Part shown: positions 1 to 5,925 of the stretch, in pieces
How the letters are laid out: each line of letters starts with the position of its first letter
Numbering within the stretch: position 1 is the stretch's first letter
Source: a virus
Lineage: Duplodnaviria > Heunggongvirae > Uroviricota > Caudoviricetes
Virus record (IMG/VR): IMGVR_UViG_2675903661_000016
DNA: 17,238 nt
Direction: 5' to 3' (one strand)
Program-made: the position numbers and the translations under genes
The notes under the pieces: model-generated
Database searches by the model: none
What the model was told of the DNA's origin: nothing
What the model saw: only the letters and a program-made list of their open reading frames with translations

Positions 1-278
1 TTATCCATCTCCATATTAACAAGAACAATTATCTATAAAATATAGTAAATATGCGGGATCCGGGAGGACTTGTAACTATCATCTCCGGATCAGCATGTAG
101 TTTTTATTTTTCCGGATGATATATGCCGCAATAATACCCCTGCATACAGATGCCTGCAAATATCTACGAAGCATCCGGCGAGAATAAACAAGGAAGTCTG
201 AGGCTATCTTATATGATAGCCTGTTGCTCAAAAGACAATGATTCACTCATCAGAACCAACAACGCATAATGCAGATAA

Positions 279-355
279 TGGACCGCCATCGAGGACTCGA
301 ACCCCGCGCAGCCAGCTTCGAAGGCTGGCGCTCTATCCCGATGAGCTAATGGCGG
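279..355 (-). tRNA. tRNA-Arg, anticodon UCG (phage-encoded, argO-like)
   Basis: Reverse complement folds as a 77-nt cloverleaf: acceptor CCGCCAT/ATGGCGG, D-arm GCTC-ATCGGGATA-GAGC, anticodon stem CCAGC/GCTGG with loop CTTCGAA, T-arm CGGGG-TTCGAGT-CCTCG, discriminator T, encoded CCA. Position 1 is C (C1-G72). Confidence 0.75.
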
Positions 356-364
356 TATGTGATA

Positions 365-440
365 TGGTGGCCCTTGCTGGATTTGAACCAGCGACCTGGC
401 GATTATGAGTCGCTCGCTCTCACCACTGAGCTAAAGGGCC
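365..440 (-). tRNA. tRNA-Ile2-like, anticodon CAU (ileX/ileZ-like; Met cannot be excluded from sequence alone)
   Basis: Reverse complement GGCCCTTTAGCTCAGTGGTGAGAGCGAGCGACTCATAATCGCCAGGTCGCTGGTTCAAATCCAGCAAGGGCCACCA: 76 nt, acceptor GGCCCTT/AAGGGCC, anticodon loop CTCATAA, T-loop TTCAAAT, encoded CCA. Close to the recalled E. coli ileX sequence. Confidence 0.8.
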
Positions 441-480
441 GGGAGCAGGATAATAACGGTACGTAACTAATCCTGCAATA

Positions 481-1584
481 TCATCCATTCTGACTGACTA
501 AATCCTGTACTTCCCTGACCGTCTGCTCAAAACGTTCAGTCTCCAGCTCAACGCCAGTTGCACGACGGCCCAGTGCCAGTGCAGCTTTAACTGTCGAACC
601 CGACCCCATGAAAAAATCTGCAACCAGGTCCCCCGGACGACTACTCGCGCTGATTATCTGCTGCAGCATTTCTGCCGGCTTTTCGCACGGATGTTTCCCG
701 GGATAGTACTGCACCGGTTTATGCGTCCACACATCCGTGTACGGCACCTGCGCCGTCACGCCAAAATACCGCCGCAGATGCTTATATTCACTCTGCAGTT
801 CCGCATACTGCCGGTTCAGTGAAGTATACGTCTCCAGCAGCTGGTGGTGGGGCTTTTCCAGTTCACCCCGCTGATGCTTCTCTTCTGCCACCCGGGCAAA
901 CAGCGCCTGTAATTTCAGATAATCGCTTTCGTTCGGTAGCTGCCACTGACTGGCACTGAACCAGTGCGACACCATGTTTTTCTTTCCTGTGGCATCCACT
1001 ATCTGTTTTGCCGTTATCCCCAGGGCAGCACGCGCATCACGAAAGTAAGCAATCAGCGGAGCCATCACATGCTGTTTCAGTGCCCTGCCCTTCGCCTCAT
1101 ACCCGGCATCTTTCGGACGATACGGCCCCTGATAATGTTCCGCGAACAGAATGCGCTCTGTGGCGGGGAAATACGCCCTCAGGCTTTCCTTGTTGCACCC
1201 GTTCCAGCGTCCGGACGGCTTCGCCCAGATAATATGGTTCAGCACACTGAAGCGTTCAAGCATCATGATTTCGATATCAGATGCCAGGCGATGGCCACAG
1301 AACAGGTAAAGACTTCCGGCAGGTTTCAGCACCCGCCAGAACTGCGCCAGACACTGGTCCAGCCACTTCAGGTAATCCTCATCACCCGTCCACTGGTTAT
1401 CCCAGCCCTCAGGCTTCACTTTAAAGTACGGCGGGTCCGTGACTATCAGGTCAACAGAATTTTCGGGTAACGACCGGATAAATTCCAGGCAGTCGGCGTT
1501 GATTAACTCACAAGCAGTGGGCCTGAGGTTTGCTTGTGATCCGGACGCATGAGCAGATGGCTGGTGAGTGCCCCTAACCCCCAC
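481..1584 (-). CDS. N6-adenine DNA methyltransferase (DPPY motif; phage orphan MTase)
   Basis: 386-aa ORF with motif IV LIVTDPPY near the N-terminus and C-terminal AdoMet-binding FFMGSGST. No in-frame ATG before residue 128, so the start must be GTG or TTG; I chose GTG at 1584 but it could extend to TTG at 1641. Confidence 0.8.
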   Translation of the reverse strand: MGVRGTHQPSAHASGSQANLRPTACELINADCLEFIRSLPENSVDLIVTDPPYFKVKPEGWDNQWTGDEDYLKWLDQCLAQFWRVLKPAGSLYLFCGHRLASDIEIMMLERFSVLNHIIWAKPSGRWNGCNKESLRAYFPATERILFAEHYQGPYRPKDAGYEAKGRALKQHVMAPLIAYFRDARAALGITAKQIVDATGKKNMVSHWFSASQWQLPNESDYLKLQALFARVAEEKHQRGELEKPHHQLLETYTSLNRQYAELQSEYKHLRRYFGVTAQVPYTDVWTHKPVQYYPGKHPCEKPAEMLQQIISASSRPGDLVADFFMGSGSTVKAALALGRRATGVELETERFEQTVREVQDLVSQNG

Positions 1585-1602
1585 CAGCCGCCCATTTACC
1601 AC

Positions 1603-1630
1603 AAATAAAAAAGCCTTCAGGACTGAAGGC
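1603..1630 (-). terminator. Intrinsic terminator overlapping the stop codon of the small wHTH gene
   Basis: Minus strand reads GCCTTCAG-TC-CTGAAGGC followed by TTTTTTATTT. Confidence 0.5.
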
Positions 1631-1814
1631 GTCTGTAACAACCGAACTGATAGTCTGCCAGACCCGCCATAACAAGCTGGGTCAGTATTAGCTGGCAGCG
1701 TTCGCGTGAAAGGTACGTATTCTGTGCAATCTCCCCGACTGTCGCCGGTTCGGTGGCACTTAATTCATTAAAAACTGCTCTGGCGGTTTCTGTCATATCC
1801 TGCTGTTTCAGCAT
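1617..1814 (-). CDS. Small putative winged-helix DNA-binding protein (66 aa from ATG), unknown function
   Basis: ORF 1617..1850; ATG at 1814 preceded by AAGGGA about 9 nt upstream. Product MLKQQDMTETARAVFNELSATEPATVGEIAQ... has an HTH-like segment. Ends inside the terminator hairpin. Confidence 0.45.
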   Translation of the reverse strand: MLKQQDMTETARAVFNELSATEPATVGEIAQNTYLSRERCQLILTQLVMAGLADYQFGCYRRLQS

Positions 1815-1987
1815 GTCTTTTTCCCTTTTCCGGTTAACGTGACACACCAATAACTCTTGTCAAAAAAGCCAGCAAGCTGAAAGACCGGTATTAATAACCA
1901 CCTGCACATTTTATGTACTGCACCATTTTTCTGGCATAAAAAAACCGCTCAATGCCGGGCAGTAAAATCTTTATTACTCAGGAAATT

Positions 1988-2701
1988 TTAACGTACTCTG
2001 ACAGTATTAATTTCAAAATCATTAATATTTCCGCTATTAAATATAACGAATTTCTTACCCCCACTCCTGTATGATTTCGATAACACCAGACGATCATCAT
2101 AGCGCGCAATAATGTAATACCATACATTCTCATAGTGGACCGCCTGATATTCCCTCTTAAACTGTGGTTTGTACCAACCGGCAATAAGAGAGAATGCCCA
2201 GAAATAAATCATAAACCCAGCCATCATGAACTCAATTCGGTGATGGCGAATAACAGACATTTCCGAAAAACATTTGACTGAAACAAGTCTTCTTCCAGAC
2301 CTGACAAAAAGCGTGATTGCAAAGGCAGCAAGAACGCAGAAAATCAGTACATCTGGCTCAACATGCTGATGAATTACAGAAAACTCCAGAACAGGTGGAA
2401 TAAAAAGCAGCAATATCGCGAGAAAAAGCCGGATAAAACTCAAATTTTGTATATTGCGCTTTTGTTTTATGCCCAAAAAGAAAACAATACCAACTCCCCA
2501 TCCAATAAGGAATATAACAATAACTGTCACAGCATAAAACAAACTTCGTGCTACATCATCGACACCAGCCCCGACAACCCACCATGGAAAGCCATAGTAA
2601 AATGAAGTACCCCATCCATAGAAATAAGCGCTCCCCCATCCGAGACAGCCCATATAAGCAACAAAAAGTGAAGAGTTTCTGAGCAGAGCACTGTCATCCA
2701 T
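1988..2701 (-). CDS. Multi-pass inner-membrane protein of unknown function (AT-rich moron in the late leader)
   Basis: 237-aa ORF starting at ATG 2701; at least four hydrophobic helices with aromatic/Gly-rich segments (GWGSAYFYGWG, FLIGWGVGIVFFLG) and a soluble C-terminal tail. Clearly lower GC than flanking phage genes. Confidence 0.6.
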   Translation of the reverse strand: MDDSALLRNSSLFVAYMGCLGWGSAYFYGWGTSFYYGFPWWVVGAGVDDVARSLFYAVTVIVIFLIGWGVGIVFFLGIKQKRNIQNLSFIRLFLAILLLFIPPVLEFSVIHQHVEPDVLIFCVLAAFAITLFVRSGRRLVSVKCFSEMSVIRHHRIEFMMAGFMIYFWAFSLIAGWYKPQFKREYQAVHYENVWYYIIARYDDRLVLSKSYRSGGKKFVIFNSGNINDFEINTVRVR

Positions 2702-2842
2702 AGTAACACCATTAACAACTCAAAAATATCAACACACATTACATAACAAATTGGATTCCATGCAGTCAAGGGGCGTCATTGATGGAGAAAGTATTGGCAC
2801 AATCGTCATCACGTTTAATGTCTATGCCATTTTTTGGGGGGT

Positions 2843-2867
2843 AAAAAACCCGCTCGGTCACGGGTTT
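2843..2867 (-). terminator. tR'-like intrinsic terminator downstream of the late promoter
   Basis: Minus strand AAACCCG-TGACCGAG-CGGGTTT followed by TTT, about 55 nt downstream of the predicted -10 element. Confidence 0.45.
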
Positions 2868-2918
2868 TAGTGGCTTTGCCATCACGTATAATAACGGCAA
2901 AATATCAGATTTACACGA

Positions 2919-2947
2919 AATATATGCCTTTTTATCTACTTTTGCAA
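2919..2947 (-). promoter_or_regulatory. pR'-like late promoter immediately downstream of the Q-like gene
   Basis: Minus strand TTGCAA (-35, 2947..2942), 17-nt spacer, TATATT (-10, 2924..2919). Further -10-like AT-rich elements (GATATT, ATTATA) lie just downstream, as at a Q-engagement pause site. Confidence 0.45.
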
Positions 2948-2954
2948 TACTTTG

Positions 2955-3620
2955 CTATGAAAATGCCGCCTTTTGTTTTGAACGTGTTCCCTCCACCAAC
3001 AATAAAGCTTCACTATCCAGCCGATGAAAAATGTGTTTCATTGCAACCCAGTGACCAGTAAATGTCTTGGACCAGTTTTTGGTTGTTACTCCCACCAGTA
3101 ACGCCAGTTCCTGGTATTCGTAACCTTCCCCACCAAAAAGCTCAGCTTTTACCGCCTGCGCCGCCAACCAGATCAACGTCTTCAGGCGCACCAGAGTTTT
3201 TCCTGCAATTTTTCTGGTACCGGATTGAGCATTAAATTCAGTCCACGCCCACTGCGTTATCGCGATCTGATGCTCCCAGCAAATGCTACCGCTGTAACAC
3301 CACAGCAGCCAGGCTTTATGATGTTCTTCAAGAGACAGAACGGCGCGTCGCCATGATGATGTCGAAAACTCAACCGGACTGACCAGGGCAATTGATGAGC
3401 CTTTCGCCAGTGATTGTTTACCCGGGATCGGGGGATTATCCCGCGTGATCATTTTTCCGGTTACCTCATCGCGGTAACGAATTTTTTTGCGTCTGTAACG
3501 CCCTGTATCGAACAGGGCATTTTCCTGCCAGACTTCCAGCTGGCCTTTTGTCGACCCACTAAGATCCGCAGTGGCAATCATGAGTTGCTCACGAACAAAC
3601 TGTAAATACTGGTTATTCAT
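2955..3620 (-). CDS. Putative late-gene antitermination protein (Q-like), assigned by position
   Basis: 221 aa from ATG 3620 with AGGTGG SD; start overlaps the rusA stop (ATGAATAA). Sits immediately upstream of the promoter-terminator unit, as Q does in lambdoid phages. No CxxC zinc-finger pairs, so it is not a lambda/82-type Q by motif; the call is contextual. Confidence 0.4.
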   Translation of the reverse strand: MNNQYLQFVREQLMIATADLSGSTKGQLEVWQENALFDTGRYRRKKIRYRDEVTGKMITRDNPPIPGKQSLAKGSSIALVSPVEFSTSSWRRAVLSLEEHHKAWLLWCYSGSICWEHQIAITQWAWTEFNAQSGTRKIAGKTLVRLKTLIWLAAQAVKAELFGGEGYEYQELALLVGVTTKNWSKTFTGHWVAMKHIFHRLDSEALLLVEGTRSKQKAAFS

Positions 3621-3975
3621 GCACACCCACCTCTGTAATTCTTATCTCCAGCCGTCCACCAGATACTGGCTTGCCACGTACAATATTGATTTCATCAAAC
3701 TGCTCATCGTCCATTAACAACCCCGCGTGCGTCAGCGCATCCAGCGGTGCTTTCAGAATATTGTCCAGGTCACGGCGGCGCTTATCCGGCGGCTCTGCAA
3801 TAATTTTTATTGCCAGCCGTCCGGACAGGCTTAATTTCAGTCGCTGCTGGCGAACAATAAGCACCACTGCCCGGCGATAACGCTCCCCGGCTTTTGATAC
3901 AAAATATGTGCTGCCACGGCGTCGCCAGTAAGTGTTCACCGTCGGCGGGTAAGGTAAAACCAAATCTATGAGCAT
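3613..3975 (-). CDS. rusA: Crossover junction endodeoxyribonuclease RusA (Holliday junction resolvase)
   Basis: 120-aa product aligns with recalled E. coli RusA along its length, including the conserved DKRRRDLDNILKAPLDALTHAGLLMDD and GGRLEIRITE segments. Strong SD AAGAGGTGA before ATG 3975. Confidence 0.85.
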   Translation of the reverse strand: MLIDLVLPYPPTVNTYWRRRGSTYFVSKAGERYRRAVVLIVRQQRLKLSLSGRLAIKIIAEPPDKRRRDLDNILKAPLDALTHAGLLMDDEQFDEINIVRGKPVSGGRLEIRITEVGVHE

Positions 3976-3987
3976 CAGTCACCTCTT

Positions 3988-5037
3988 TTACCCGAGCACG
4001 CCAGTCGCAAAGGCGTGATCAAGAAAACGAAAAATTAACTCAATCTGAGAGCCGTACTTTTTCTCAAACTTCAGCGGGTCTGCATGAAGTTCGTTGTGGT
4101 GCTCCCGGCACAACGGTAGCGTGAAAATATCGTGGGCCTTTGTTCCCACTCCCCCCTGACCATGACCAATCAGGTGATGCGGATCGTCAGCTGGCTTACC
4201 ACAACACGCACACGGCTGTGTCTTTACCCAGCGCGTGTATTTCTCATTAACCCAACGGCGACGTTTAGGCCGCCTCATGAACGATTCAGGAGACTCCGGA
4301 TCAACGGCGATACTGACAACCGTTTTTTTCTGTGGTGGATTTTGTTGCTGGTGGACGTGAAGTGGCAGCGCAATATTTTTTGTGCGCTGCTTCAGTATGC
4401 TGATGGCTGTCTGTTCTCCCGGTACGATGTCACTCTCACGGTATACGGAGCGGATTTTTTCCGCCGGTAATCCCAGCGAACGACGCGCTACTGCCTCAGG
4501 TAGTGCATCCACCACCTGATTGCAGGCCGCCCACCAGGATAATTCGGCCAGCGATAACTCCCTCTCCTGCGTACCGCTTATTGCGTGACGGATGACGTCA
4601 ATCATCCAGGCAACCAGATTCTGCTGAGCAAGTTGATCGAGTGATTCTGATGTCTGGTCGCGCAGCTGGTTGTCACAGTGCCAGCACAATACCATCGCGC
4701 CGGTACCGTAACGGTGAATGACTGTTTCGCTGTGATGATAATCGCCGTGTGGCCACTGGCAGGATTTCACGTGACGTAATAACCAGTCAGACAGTGCACC
4801 TGCACCACCTGCTGCACGAATAACCCGCTCATCGCTGAAAAATGGCAGTAATGTTTTATCCTCTGCCAGCGGCTGGCGAACGGCAGGAACGACTCCGGAC
4901 GGCAGATCGCGCATGTTTTTCGGTTCCGCCTCCACCAATATTCTGCCGTTATGGAATGCTGACATTGATTCACGGCCTGGCTTAACGATAACCAGACCGA
5001 GTTCCGGTACCAGAACAGGTCGAAGTAATACCCGCAC
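3988..5037 (-). CDS. DUF968-family protein (YdfU-like) with C-terminal Cys/His nuclease-like motif
   Basis: 349 aa from GTG 5037 (GGAGGT SD, immediately after the upstream stop). C-terminus CACCGKPADDPHHLIGHGQGGVGTKAHDIFTLPLCREHHNELH resembles an HNH/zinc-binding module. Same size and position as YdfU in Qin. Confidence 0.65.
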   Translation of the reverse strand: MRVLLRPVLVPELGLVIVKPGRESMSAFHNGRILVEAEPKNMRDLPSGVVPAVRQPLAEDKTLLPFFSDERVIRAAGGAGALSDWLLRHVKSCQWPHGDYHHSETVIHRYGTGAMVLCWHCDNQLRDQTSESLDQLAQQNLVAWMIDVIRHAISGTQERELSLAELSWWAACNQVVDALPEAVARRSLGLPAEKIRSVYRESDIVPGEQTAISILKQRTKNIALPLHVHQQQNPPQKKTVVSIAVDPESPESFMRRPKRRRWVNEKYTRWVKTQPCACCGKPADDPHHLIGHGQGGVGTKAHDIFTLPLCREHHNELHADPLKFEKKYGSQIELIFRFLDHAFATGVLG

Positions 5038-5038
5038 G

Positions 5039-5311
5039 TTACCTCCAGATGCGCTGCTGGAATGTGCGGGACGGACGCGGTGGGCGTTCGGAATAAGGGA
5101 GCCTGACGGAGATTATCCAGTGACGATAATCGAGGCTGAGGGCTTTCTCAAACTCATATCCGCGCCTGCGGTAACACTGGATCAGCCATTCGGCCTGTTC
5201 TTCAGTGCATGGGGGATGCTGGTACCAGTCAGTTTTAAATACGTGCGAACGCCGCCCCCGCTTAATGGCCGGATCGACTTCAGAATTGTGGGATTTTATA
5301 TGTTGCGCCAT
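5039..5311 (-). CDS. Hypothetical 90-aa protein (positional equivalent of rem in Qin)
   Basis: ATG 5311 with GGAGA SD; its stop abuts the DUF968 start, implying translational coupling. No recognisable motif. Confidence 0.45.
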   Translation of the reverse strand: MAQHIKSHNSEVDPAIKRGRRSHVFKTDWYQHPPCTEEQAEWLIQCYRRRGYEFEKALSLDYRHWIISVRLPYSERPPRPSRTFQQRIWR

Positions 5312-5479
5312 CGGGTTCTCCGGTGACGCAGCAGGTGCCAGTTGTTCAGGCTGACGTGCGAATTGTAAACCAGAATGCCAGGAAAAAACAAAGTCTGCCG
5401 AAACGGGGTAAGTGCGGGTGCGTTGAGGATGCCTGACACATCAGAGGTGGCGAGGGATTTCTCCCTCGCTTGGTCACTC

Positions 5480-5635
5480 TTACTTCTCAGATTCGTAGTC
5501 TACGAAGACAGCGACCTCCGTCTGGCCGGTTCGGATTCGTACCTCGCAGAGGTCTTTCCTCGTTACCAGTGCCGTCACAACAACGGTAATACAGATGACG
5601 ATCAGGGCGATTAACATCGCCTTTTGCTGCTTCAT
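5480..5635 (-). CDS. hok: Hok/Gef-family type I toxin (HokD/RelF-like small membrane toxin)
   Basis: 51-aa product MKQQKAMLIALIVICITVVVTALVTRKDLCEVRIRTGQTEVAVFVDYESEK is near-identical in pattern to recalled HokD. AAGGAG SD upstream. An in-frame upstream ATG at 5692 gives a 70-aa ORF overlapping the leader. Confidence 0.8.
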   Translation of the reverse strand: MKQQKAMLIALIVICITVVVTALVTRKDLCEVRIRTGQTEVAVFVDYESEK

Positions 5636-5689
5636 AGCCTGCTTCTCCTTGCCTTTCGGCACGTAAGAGGCTAACCTACGTTTGTGAAG

Positions 5690-5770
5690 CATAGATTGGG
5701 CCTCAGATTAATGTTAAGCGTCCTGCAAGACGCGTAATGTTAACTGGGGCTTTTCTCTGTCTGCCTTACG
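5690..5770 (+). ncRNA. Putative Sok-like antisense RNA region opposite the hok leader (boundaries not determinable by eye)
   Basis: Inferred from hok/sok family organisation: antisense RNA is encoded opposite the 5' leader and upstream-ORF start. A 9-bp inverted repeat CTGTCTGCC/GGCAGACAG (5757-5794) lies in this leader. Confidence 0.2.
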
Positions 5771-5925
5771 GCGGCATGCCCGAGGCAGACAGCCTCAAGC
5801 ACCCGCAGCAATTCTACTTAACTCTTCTTTCCCCGCAAACCGTTTTTATCCCCAGCGGCAAATCGAATACACCACCAGCGCCACCGCCATTGCAATTCCT
5901 ACCGTTATGAACGCTTCAGGCCAGG

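Follow-up and report, generated by a model that had tools for sequence, protein, structure and literature searches.

A probable Q82-family late-gene control unit in a lambdoid prophage, with late promoter, pause element and terminator adjoining the antiterminator gene

The late promoter region of phage 82 has been studied by the Roberts and Hochschild laboratories. Transcription from this promoter, 82 pR', starts at an AAA (Bird, Strobel and Roberts 2016, PMC5001585). Its -10-like pause element is nearer to TATAAT than that of lambda and includes an extended -10, the '+15-17 GCC' sets the pause site and is accompanied by an AT-rich stretch, and polymerase pauses at +25/+26, where the natural +25 base is U (PMC5001585). 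The Q-binding element (QBE) has been placed between the -35 and the -10 (Wells et al. 2016, PMC4914094), and the Q82 family, PF06323, is one among three unrelated Q families (PMC9388147). Short terminated late RNAs have been reported for phage 82, and StxS demonstrates that the by-product of a pR'-tR' unit can be a regulator (PMC7547250). In Salmonella, the mapped IsrJ RNA is 74 nt long and has a reported invasion phenotype (PMC2330248), and lysogens express it at a high level; IsrK is cited by Sy et al. as an antitermination-regulated RNA (PMC7547250).

We analyzed a stretch of 17,238 nt from a caudoviral genome (IMG/VR record IMGVR_UViG_2675903661_000016), referred to here as the window, and within it the segment at 2,843 to 2,947. 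We conclude, with a probability of roughly 0.87, that this segment is the late-gene control unit (pR', Q-utilisation site and tR') of a lambdoid prophage with an antiterminator of the phage 82 Q family. The mechanism is the textbook one in its Q82-family form, which is common in E. coli (about 1,400 of 5,426 complete genomes match part of the segment), and the allele itself was previously uncharacterised: in the sequence records examined, the Q-utilisation unit carries no annotation. The preliminary description had already read the segment as a Q-utilisation unit; homology to the biochemically characterised phage 82 system and conservation over more than 100 related loci both support this. All unit coordinates are given on the minus strand with +1 at A2912 (Table 1).

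Table 1. Coordinates of the features of the control unit and of its surroundings in the window.
Feature	Position	Strand	Basis or remark
DUF968 gene	5037-3988	minus	gene order upstream of the unit
rusA	3975-3613	minus	gene order upstream of the unit
Q antiterminator gene, 221 aa, Q82 family	3620-2955	minus	PF06323, phrog_304, identity to phage 82 Q
-35 hexamer TTGCAA of late promoter pR'	2947-2942	minus	starts 7 nt past Q stop; promoter scan
Promoter spacer, 17 bp, AAGTAGATAAAAAGGCA	2941-2925	minus	putative QBE, by position only
-10 hexamer TATATT	2924-2919	minus	A at position 2 and T at position 6 conserved across family
Inferred transcription start, AAA triplet	2912-2910 (+1 = 2912)	minus	7 nt past -10; AAA as at 82 pR'
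Predicted sigma70-dependent pause element, extended -10-like TGaTATTTT, +6..+14	2907-2899	minus	same as in 82-type prophage
GCC, +15..+17, discriminator-like G/C segment	2898-2896	minus	matches '+15-17 GCC' (PMC5001585)
Predicted pause, +25 (U, T2888) / +26 (A2887)	2888-2887	minus	by register from 82 pR'
Leader hairpin 1, +11..+39, 12 pairs, 5-nt loop	2902-2874	minus	MFE and centroid structures
Intrinsic terminator tR', +45..+70: A tract, 5-bp GC-rich stem, 6-nt loop, U6	2868-2843	minus	folding; similarity boundary
237-aa membrane-protein gene (insert)	2701-1988	minus	PHROG 1521, unknown function
Degenerate second tR' copy, 3' of the 237-aa gene	1962-1935	minus	1885-1970 aligned with 2790-2875 and other tR' regions
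Next good intrinsic terminator, end of 69-aa ORF, 7-bp stem + TTTTTTATTT	about 1630-1605	minus	scan; -10.5 kcal/mol, z -2.8

The promoter TTGCAA-17-TATATT had been placed close to the Q stop in the preliminary description, and there it is; the accompanying term 'near-consensus' was generous for a match at 9 of 12 positions (4/6 and 5/6). Promoter prediction lists the site, and with six such matches in 2.8 kb against 3.9 +/- 1.8 expected, it does not rise above chance: the hexamers alone are not significant. The -10-like repeats described earlier are present as well, the first being the predicted pause element and the second a TATTAT at 2893-2888. The comparison with 82 pR' rests on the features given in the text of PMC5001585 and PMC4914094, all of which, when +1 is set at 2912, recur at matching positions of the window: AAA at +1-3, TG at +6/7, TATTTT at +9-14, GCC at +15-17, U at +25 and A at +26, with an AT-rich stretch (2895-2887) 3' of the GCC. 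The GenBank record of phage 82 ends at the Q stop, so the sequences were compared through the prophage of E. coli strain DAM, whose Q gene is 100% nucleotide-identical to X92588. Window and 82-type prophage share TTGCAA, a spacer length of 17 bp, TATATT, a six-base interval and the sequence of +1 to +17 (AAATCTGATATTTTGCC), and the start and pause-element stretch AAATCTGATATTTT is identical in both. The spacer differs from that of the phage 82 type, AACTGGATTAAAAAGCA, at 5 of 17 positions. It carries a T-to-A change at -21, where at least 70% of the family have a T. From +18 on, through both hairpin stems and the terminator, the window represents a different allele from the 82 type.

Conservation across the family is far more telling than the hexamers. 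We retrieved loci through the Q protein from GTDB genomes and phage records of Escherichia, Shigella, Citrobacter, Klebsiella, Raoultella, Enterobacter, Buttiauxella and Cronobacter. Spacing between the -35 and the pause element (GATAT) is exactly 41 nt in 19 of 20 loci; the sole exception, which has lost one nucleotide and whose pause element is mutated, has apparently decayed. Of 19 loci found via the Q protein, in at least 8 genera, 17 have the sequence TTGCAAAA when variation of the -35 as TTG[CA]A[AG] is accepted. Invariant or nearly so across the 19 loci are TTGCAAAA, two bases of the -10 (A and T), T at +4, TGATAT at +6 to +11, T at +14 and C at +17. The family pattern, TTGMARAA-N30-T-NN-GATAY-NN-T, has a single match in the window (2947-2899, against 0.03 expected by chance) and one match each in 24 of 27 loci; it is this composite signature, not the hexamers, that lifts the unit above chance. 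As a more independent test, IMG/VR was scanned with a stricter pattern. Directly downstream of a Q82-like gene lie 91 of the 120 matches, with identities to the window's Q ranging from 95% to 30%; the other 29 are, by a rough estimate, within the chance range, a few of them with too little upstream DNA. Among 70 unique IMG/VR units, the highly conserved positions outside the pattern are the T (+6) of the extended -10 TG, the -10 and the C at +17. A hairpin and U-tract follow within 130 nt in 79 of 83 unique units, giving leaders of 50-98 nt (median 73). Non-coding bases thus stay fixed while Q drifts to 30% identity, which indicates strong selection on the DNA element. These data document the elements, their exact register, their conservation and their linkage to Q82-family genes. 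The family signature is itself a by-product of the analysis: TTGCAAAA, 30 nt and T-NN-GATAT-NN-T form a DNA marker for Q-utilisation sites of the Q82 family. Q82 is the only Q family still without a solved structure, and the dozens of natural Q and spacer variants from the survey could help to define its binding element.

Downstream of the pause element, the RNA is predicted to form two hairpins. Folding of the whole 79-nt RNA gives -24.1 kcal/mol (z -4.8), and none of 200 shuffled sequences is as stable. The intrinsic terminator proposed in the preliminary description, around 2843-2867, holds up on folding (-11.5 kcal/mol, z -3.0). It reads AAAACCCGTGACCGAGCGGGTTTTTT, with arms AAAACCCGU-GACCGA-GCGGGUUUU plus UU; the stem core is 5 bp only, and this GC core alone contributes -7.0 kcal/mol ahead of the U6. 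A consensus terminator scan did not list the tR' hairpin, most likely because four A-U pairs extend the stem into the U tract and leave too few T, and the tR' call accordingly rests on folding in place of the scan.

Hairpin 1, the conserved leader hairpin, is another by-product. In the GCC class, to which the window and phage 82 belong, 82% of cells are paired compared with 32-54% in slid controls, and four pairs change on both sides, a modest covariation; it was counted within the GCC class only, because the all-class MAFFT alignment is out of structural register. Other stem classes, GUCG/CGAC and AUGCUGCC/GGCGGCAU, occupy the same place, and most units have a hairpin at roughly +11 to +40, between pause site and terminator. 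Many G-U pairs in hairpin 1 argue for a structure at the RNA level on the minus strand. A class of leaders of about 52 nt lacks hairpin 1, which is thus not essential for Q action. Stabilising the short RNA and insulating the terminator are guesses at its role, which we did not find discussed in a literature search.

The leader leads to IsrJ, a connection that also emerged as a by-product. The unit has no Rfam match at gathering thresholds. A permissive scan aligns 2915-2844 with isrJ (RF01393) over its full length at 20.0 bits (E 0.11), below the 37-bit threshold, and yields an isrK match that is also sub-threshold; the window RNA is accordingly assigned to neither Rfam family. In Gifsy-1, isrJ itself scores 100 bits (positions 4047-4121 of our locus L004) and lies directly 3' of TTGCAAAACTGGATTAAAACGGCTATATTTTATGTAAATCTGATATCG, a complete Q82-type promoter and pause element that includes relic C-terminal codons of Q. 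The Gifsy-1 isrJ unit and the window unit have the same layout, TTGCAA-17-TATATT-6-AAATCUGAUAU, followed by hairpin 1 and terminator; the RNA of about 74 nt shares its first 11 nt with that of the window, and the equivalent AAA lies about 2-3 nt downstream of the start of IsrJ as modelled by Rfam. They differ in their terminators and in the hairpin 1 stem class, GUCG...CGAC in IsrJ and GCC...GGC in the window. They also differ in position: the window unit adjoins Q, whereas the Gifsy-1 unit lies about 840 bp downstream of antQ, split from it by an inserted module of isrK, P1-type C4 antisense-system elements and the antirepressor gene anrP. Above threshold, isrJ is found in leaders directly after Q82-family genes in Enterobacter phages and in chromosomes of Citrobacter, Raoultella and Klebsiella. 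IsrJ and the window RNA appear to be leader RNAs of one kind, in different alleles, which links a virulence-associated sRNA of Salmonella to phage late-gene control. In the literature we searched, IsrJ is treated simply as an sRNA gene, and we found no link to a late promoter or Q-utilisation site. IsrK as the Gifsy-1 late leader, implied in PMC7547250, is rejected: the Q82-type promoter and pause element precede isrJ, and isrK overlaps the P1-type c4 elements. The literature on the Pas sRNA and on AgvB/AsxR does not concern this locus.

We consider it possible, but only tentatively, that the 70-nt leader is an E. coli allele of IsrJ, and that Q82-type late promoters form a widespread family of constitutive, Hfq-binding prophage sRNAs whose variable hairpin and linker regions target host genes. 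On that view, the Gifsy-1 late promoter would be the real AntQ utilisation site and IsrJ its tR'-terminated leader. A rival reading sees a stand-alone sRNA gene, in which a 70-nt trans-acting regulator of the IsrJ or StxS type, constitutive and Hfq-binding, keeps the unit conserved. We regard this as rather unlikely, and it is compatible with the Q switch. IsrJ, the Gifsy-1 counterpart, does bind Hfq and is encoded 3' of a Q82-type promoter, with an invasion phenotype (PMC2330248) and high expression in lysogens, and StxS is a precedent for a regulator arising from pR'-tR' (PMC7547250). The window RNA is stably folded into two hairpins with a U tail and aligns with isrJ over its full length, yet its 20 bits fall short of the 37 required by Rfam. 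Nor is a conserved seed evident, given that the linker between the hairpins differs among close alleles (GCCACU, GCUAGU, AGCAAAC), and the family-invariant parts are exactly those that the DNA-level pause element needs.

The late-gene control unit is preferred also in view of the gene that precedes it. The Q protein matches Phage_antiter_Q (PF06323) at E 1.3e-90 over profile positions 1-216 of 220, that is, at full length, and phrog_304, 'anti-termination protein Q-like', at E 1.8e-106. Its identity to phage 82 Q (X92588) is 77%; PPompW-type STEC prophages and related E. coli phages have a Q that is 91-92% identical to it, and AntQ of Salmonella Gifsy-1 is 67% identical. The preliminary description had called the protein otherwise unrecognisable and had drawn support for it from the position of the unit; the former is wrong, as PF06323 recognises Q, and the positional argument is therefore not needed. 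At E <= 0.01, PF06323 is the sole Pfam family found, with no match to lambda-type PF03589 or 21-type PF06530. NCBIfam holds no family for Q or for two small downstream ORFs, and the PDB no relative of Q.

The amber-shortened Q is a further side observation. The gene stops at an amber TAG (2957-2955), 8 codons ahead of the usual family stop, giving 221 aa in place of the 229 aa of phage 82 Q. The TAG takes the place of an AAG or CAG codon of the relatives, and the ancestral stop has changed from TAA to AAA (2933-2931). In 72 of 91 IMG/VR units Q stops within the promoter spacer, 14 nt past the first T of the -35, so that its last codons overlap the -35; in distant family members, Q ends before the -35. 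The 221-aa amber allele is also found in strains 5-6% diverged in DNA, one of which retains the old TAA, and is therefore not a recent lesion. In strains W12-1 and 317 the Q gene is annotated as 666 nt. The short Q is probably functional, with the amber as the main ground for caution: the truncation, or the T-to-A change at -21, could weaken Q function or Q binding.

An improbable reading takes this caution to its end and supposes a decaying relic, namely a defective prophage in which the amber has inactivated Q and the promoter and terminator are merely inherited. [quoted passage not shown] Clearly decayed copies also exist elsewhere: one nucleotide is missing between -10 and +1 in the loci L005 and L006, and in these two and L007 the pause element has changed to GATAC. 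The window, unlike those copies, has every cis element intact and in register. The 221-aa allele, moreover, is kept in the diverged lineages, and about 181 complete E. coli genomes match at least 80% of the segment from Q through the insert. Q ends earlier in distant members, so its last 8 residues are no requirement across the family. Pure chance, with the hairpin and U tract merely ending a Q-containing early operon beside incidental promoter-like and AT-rich -10-like repeats, has in its favour the near-chance rate of 9/12 promoter matches and the ordinariness of a terminator after an operon's last gene, but is scarcely credible against a composite signature found once, in the right place, a 41-nt spacing and TG-n-TAT-nn-T that persist in non-coding DNA while Q falls to 30% identity, and +1 to +17 identical to the phage 82-type sequence.

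For the late-gene control unit, the start site, pause, Q binding and readthrough can be modelled on phage 82 biochemistry. Host sigma70 RNA polymerase would start constitutively at about A2912. Retained sigma70 would re-bind TGaTATTTT, and the polymerase would scrunch and pause at about +25/+26, a position presumably set by the GCC at +15-17 and favoured by the U at +25. When Q is absent, polymerase would escape the pause, stop at the hairpin-U6 terminator and release the two-hairpin leader RNA of about 70 nt. Q, made from the upstream early operon, would bind its DNA site in the spacer and engage the paused complex with the help of NusA. Travelling with the polymerase, it would confer resistance to tR', to the terminators near 1950 and 1620 and, presumably, to further ones. 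Q-modified transcription could then pass the inserted accessory genes as well as the methylase and tRNA genes and, in the arrangement of RM10466, reach the lysis genes about 9.4 kb downstream. Relatives lend experimental support, as the Gifsy-1 unit yields the mapped 74-nt IsrJ in vivo and phage 82 has been studied in vitro.

The unit has a sharp downstream boundary. Megablast similarity spans rusA through Q and ends at query positions 856-858, equivalent to 2845-2843 of the window, the last bases of the U tract; this holds for 13 phage records and for the Q-side matches listed among more than 1,000 E. coli genomes. By this endpoint, Q, pR', the pause site and tR' form one cassette that moves between prophages. 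The 237-aa membrane-protein gene inserted beyond it is found by itself in other genomes. Behind that gene, the degenerate second tR' copy folds at -6.6 kcal/mol (z -1.0) and is a weak terminator at best; then follow the 69-aa winged-helix ORF, its terminator, a type II-like DNA methyltransferase gene and two tRNA genes. The preliminary description had Q-modified polymerase read through one downstream terminator at 1603-1630, which is present (scan hit at 1630-1613) without being the sole site, since two terminator-like sites precede the methylase gene. The window ends ahead of any lysis or structural genes, and the target of antitermination is visible in a related genome only. RM10466, 100% identical over 1900-3700, 97.8-99% over 1-5325 and mosaic elsewhere, continues the gene string to a nanS-type esterase gene and a holin gene about 9.4 kb past the promoter, a layout in which processive antitermination is needed. 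These results settle the annotation of the window as to Q, late promoter, pause site, terminator and direction of late transcription. They also place the 237-aa, winged-helix, methylase and tRNA genes within a predicted Q-controlled late transcript, comparable to the toxin and accessory genes of Stx phages.

Among known systems, the closest natural allele is that of the PPompW-type STEC prophages (LC567818 and relatives) and similar E. coli prophages, whose Q is 91% identical to that of the window. They share with the window the AAGTAGAT spacer class, +1 to +17, the type of hairpin 1, the AAAACCCG...CGGGUUUU terminator stem and the similarity endpoint. They differ in a 229-aa Q with its stop inside the spacer, in the terminator loop and in having tRNA genes directly after the unit, in place of the 237-aa membrane-protein insert. 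The 82-type prophage has its hairpin at +13 to +37, in the same register, and a terminator within about 80 nt, as in the window; its leader is about 78 nt long compared with the 70 nt predicted here. A second strong terminator follows near +187, and the holin gene is about 300 nt past the start, whereas the window has the inserted accessory genes. The pR'-6S RNA-tR' unit of lambda and the pR'-StxS unit of Stx phages follow the same logic: the late promoter is constitutive, polymerase pauses close to it in dependence on sigma70, Q is loaded, and lysogens contain a short terminated RNA. They do so with unrelated Q families (PF03589 in lambda) and no sequence similarity to the window, with a pause at +16/17 in contrast to +25, and with leaders of 194 nt and 258 nt in contrast to the 70 nt of the unit described here.

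In Gifsy-1, a late promoter of the Q82 type, complete with its pause element, lies directly 5' of the Salmonella sRNA IsrJ, and the stretch running from promoter to IsrJ (4015-4121 of L004, the Gifsy-1 locus in reverse complement of NC_010392) is comparable to window 2947-2843. IsrJ itself scores 100 bits against Rfam at this locus. Given a promoter and pause element of this type immediately before it, IsrJ seems to represent the Gifsy-1 late promoter's terminated leader, a role that the literature we found on IsrJ does not state. A module comprising isrK, C4 antisense elements and anrP is inserted in Gifsy-1 between antQ, its Q gene, and the promoter-IsrJ unit.

Three related loci from E. coli ECMA0423 and Shigella flexneri SFBU1023 (L005, L006 and L007) carry decayed copies of the promoter-pause unit. 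In L005 and L006 one nucleotide is missing between -10 and +1, the -10 element of L007 now reads TATATC, and GATAC replaces the normal pause element in all three; these units are useful natural negative controls. In the stretch from the pause site to the terminator, the leader RNA of the window is predicted to fold into a hairpin. Its structure is conserved at equivalent positions in related loci, built from stem sequences of several kinds, and is absent from the class whose leaders are about 52 nt long. The opposite strand of the leader holds a promoter-like match (9/12, TTGCCA-16-CAAAAT), probably arising by chance in AT-rich sequence.

The window Q gene terminates at an amber codon 8 codons ahead of the usual family stop, and the ancestral stop, located inside the promoter spacer, is now AAA. 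The identical amber is found in strains diverged by 5-6%, one of which retains the old TAA. In some E. coli prophages the match to the window is restricted to the end of rusA and the first ~155 codons of Q (about 70%), followed by divergence; these partial matches (H38-H42 among E. coli genomes) cover query 1-546, equivalent to window 3700-3155, with identity of up to 92%. Such a breakdown of similarity suggests recombination inside Q, which could exchange the C-terminal part along with the promoter.

The DUF968-rusA-Q block is preceded by a hok/sok-type antitoxin RNA, near which the closest genome has an annotated hokD and a RelE/ParE-family pair. On the other side of the unit, the tR'-distal sequence occurs twice, in diverged copies that flank a gene for a 237-aa predicted membrane protein, which has no Pfam match and is found separately in other E. 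coli genomes. The gene has the appearance of an accessory-gene cassette that was inserted immediately downstream of the late terminator. Further downstream, a good intrinsic terminator overlaps the stop codon of a 69-aa ORF.

Features in and around the Q-late promoter region (window coordinates)
Feature	Position	Strand	Remarks
hok/sok-type antitoxin RNA	5630-5804	minus	Rfam sok, 118 bits
Amber codon of Q	2955-2957	minus	
Ancestral Q stop	2931-2933	minus	
Antisense promoter-like match	2876-2903	plus	
Leader hairpin	2874-2902	minus	
Diverged tR'-distal copies with enclosed gene	1885-2875	minus	
237-aa predicted membrane protein gene	2701-1988	minus	PHROG 1521, family without known function
69-aa ORF	1617-1826	minus	weak winged-helix (TrmB/MarR-like) matches; PHROG 331 match
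Intrinsic terminator	1630-1613	minus	
Type II-like DNA methyltransferase gene	481-1641	minus	
Two tRNA genes after methyltransferase gene	282-355, 368-440	minus	Ile and Arg in closest genome's annotation

No stx gene is annotated at the corresponding place in E. coli RM10466, the closest complete genome. The methyltransferase-tRNA layout of the window occurs in Stx-type phages, where it separates Q from the toxin or lysis genes.
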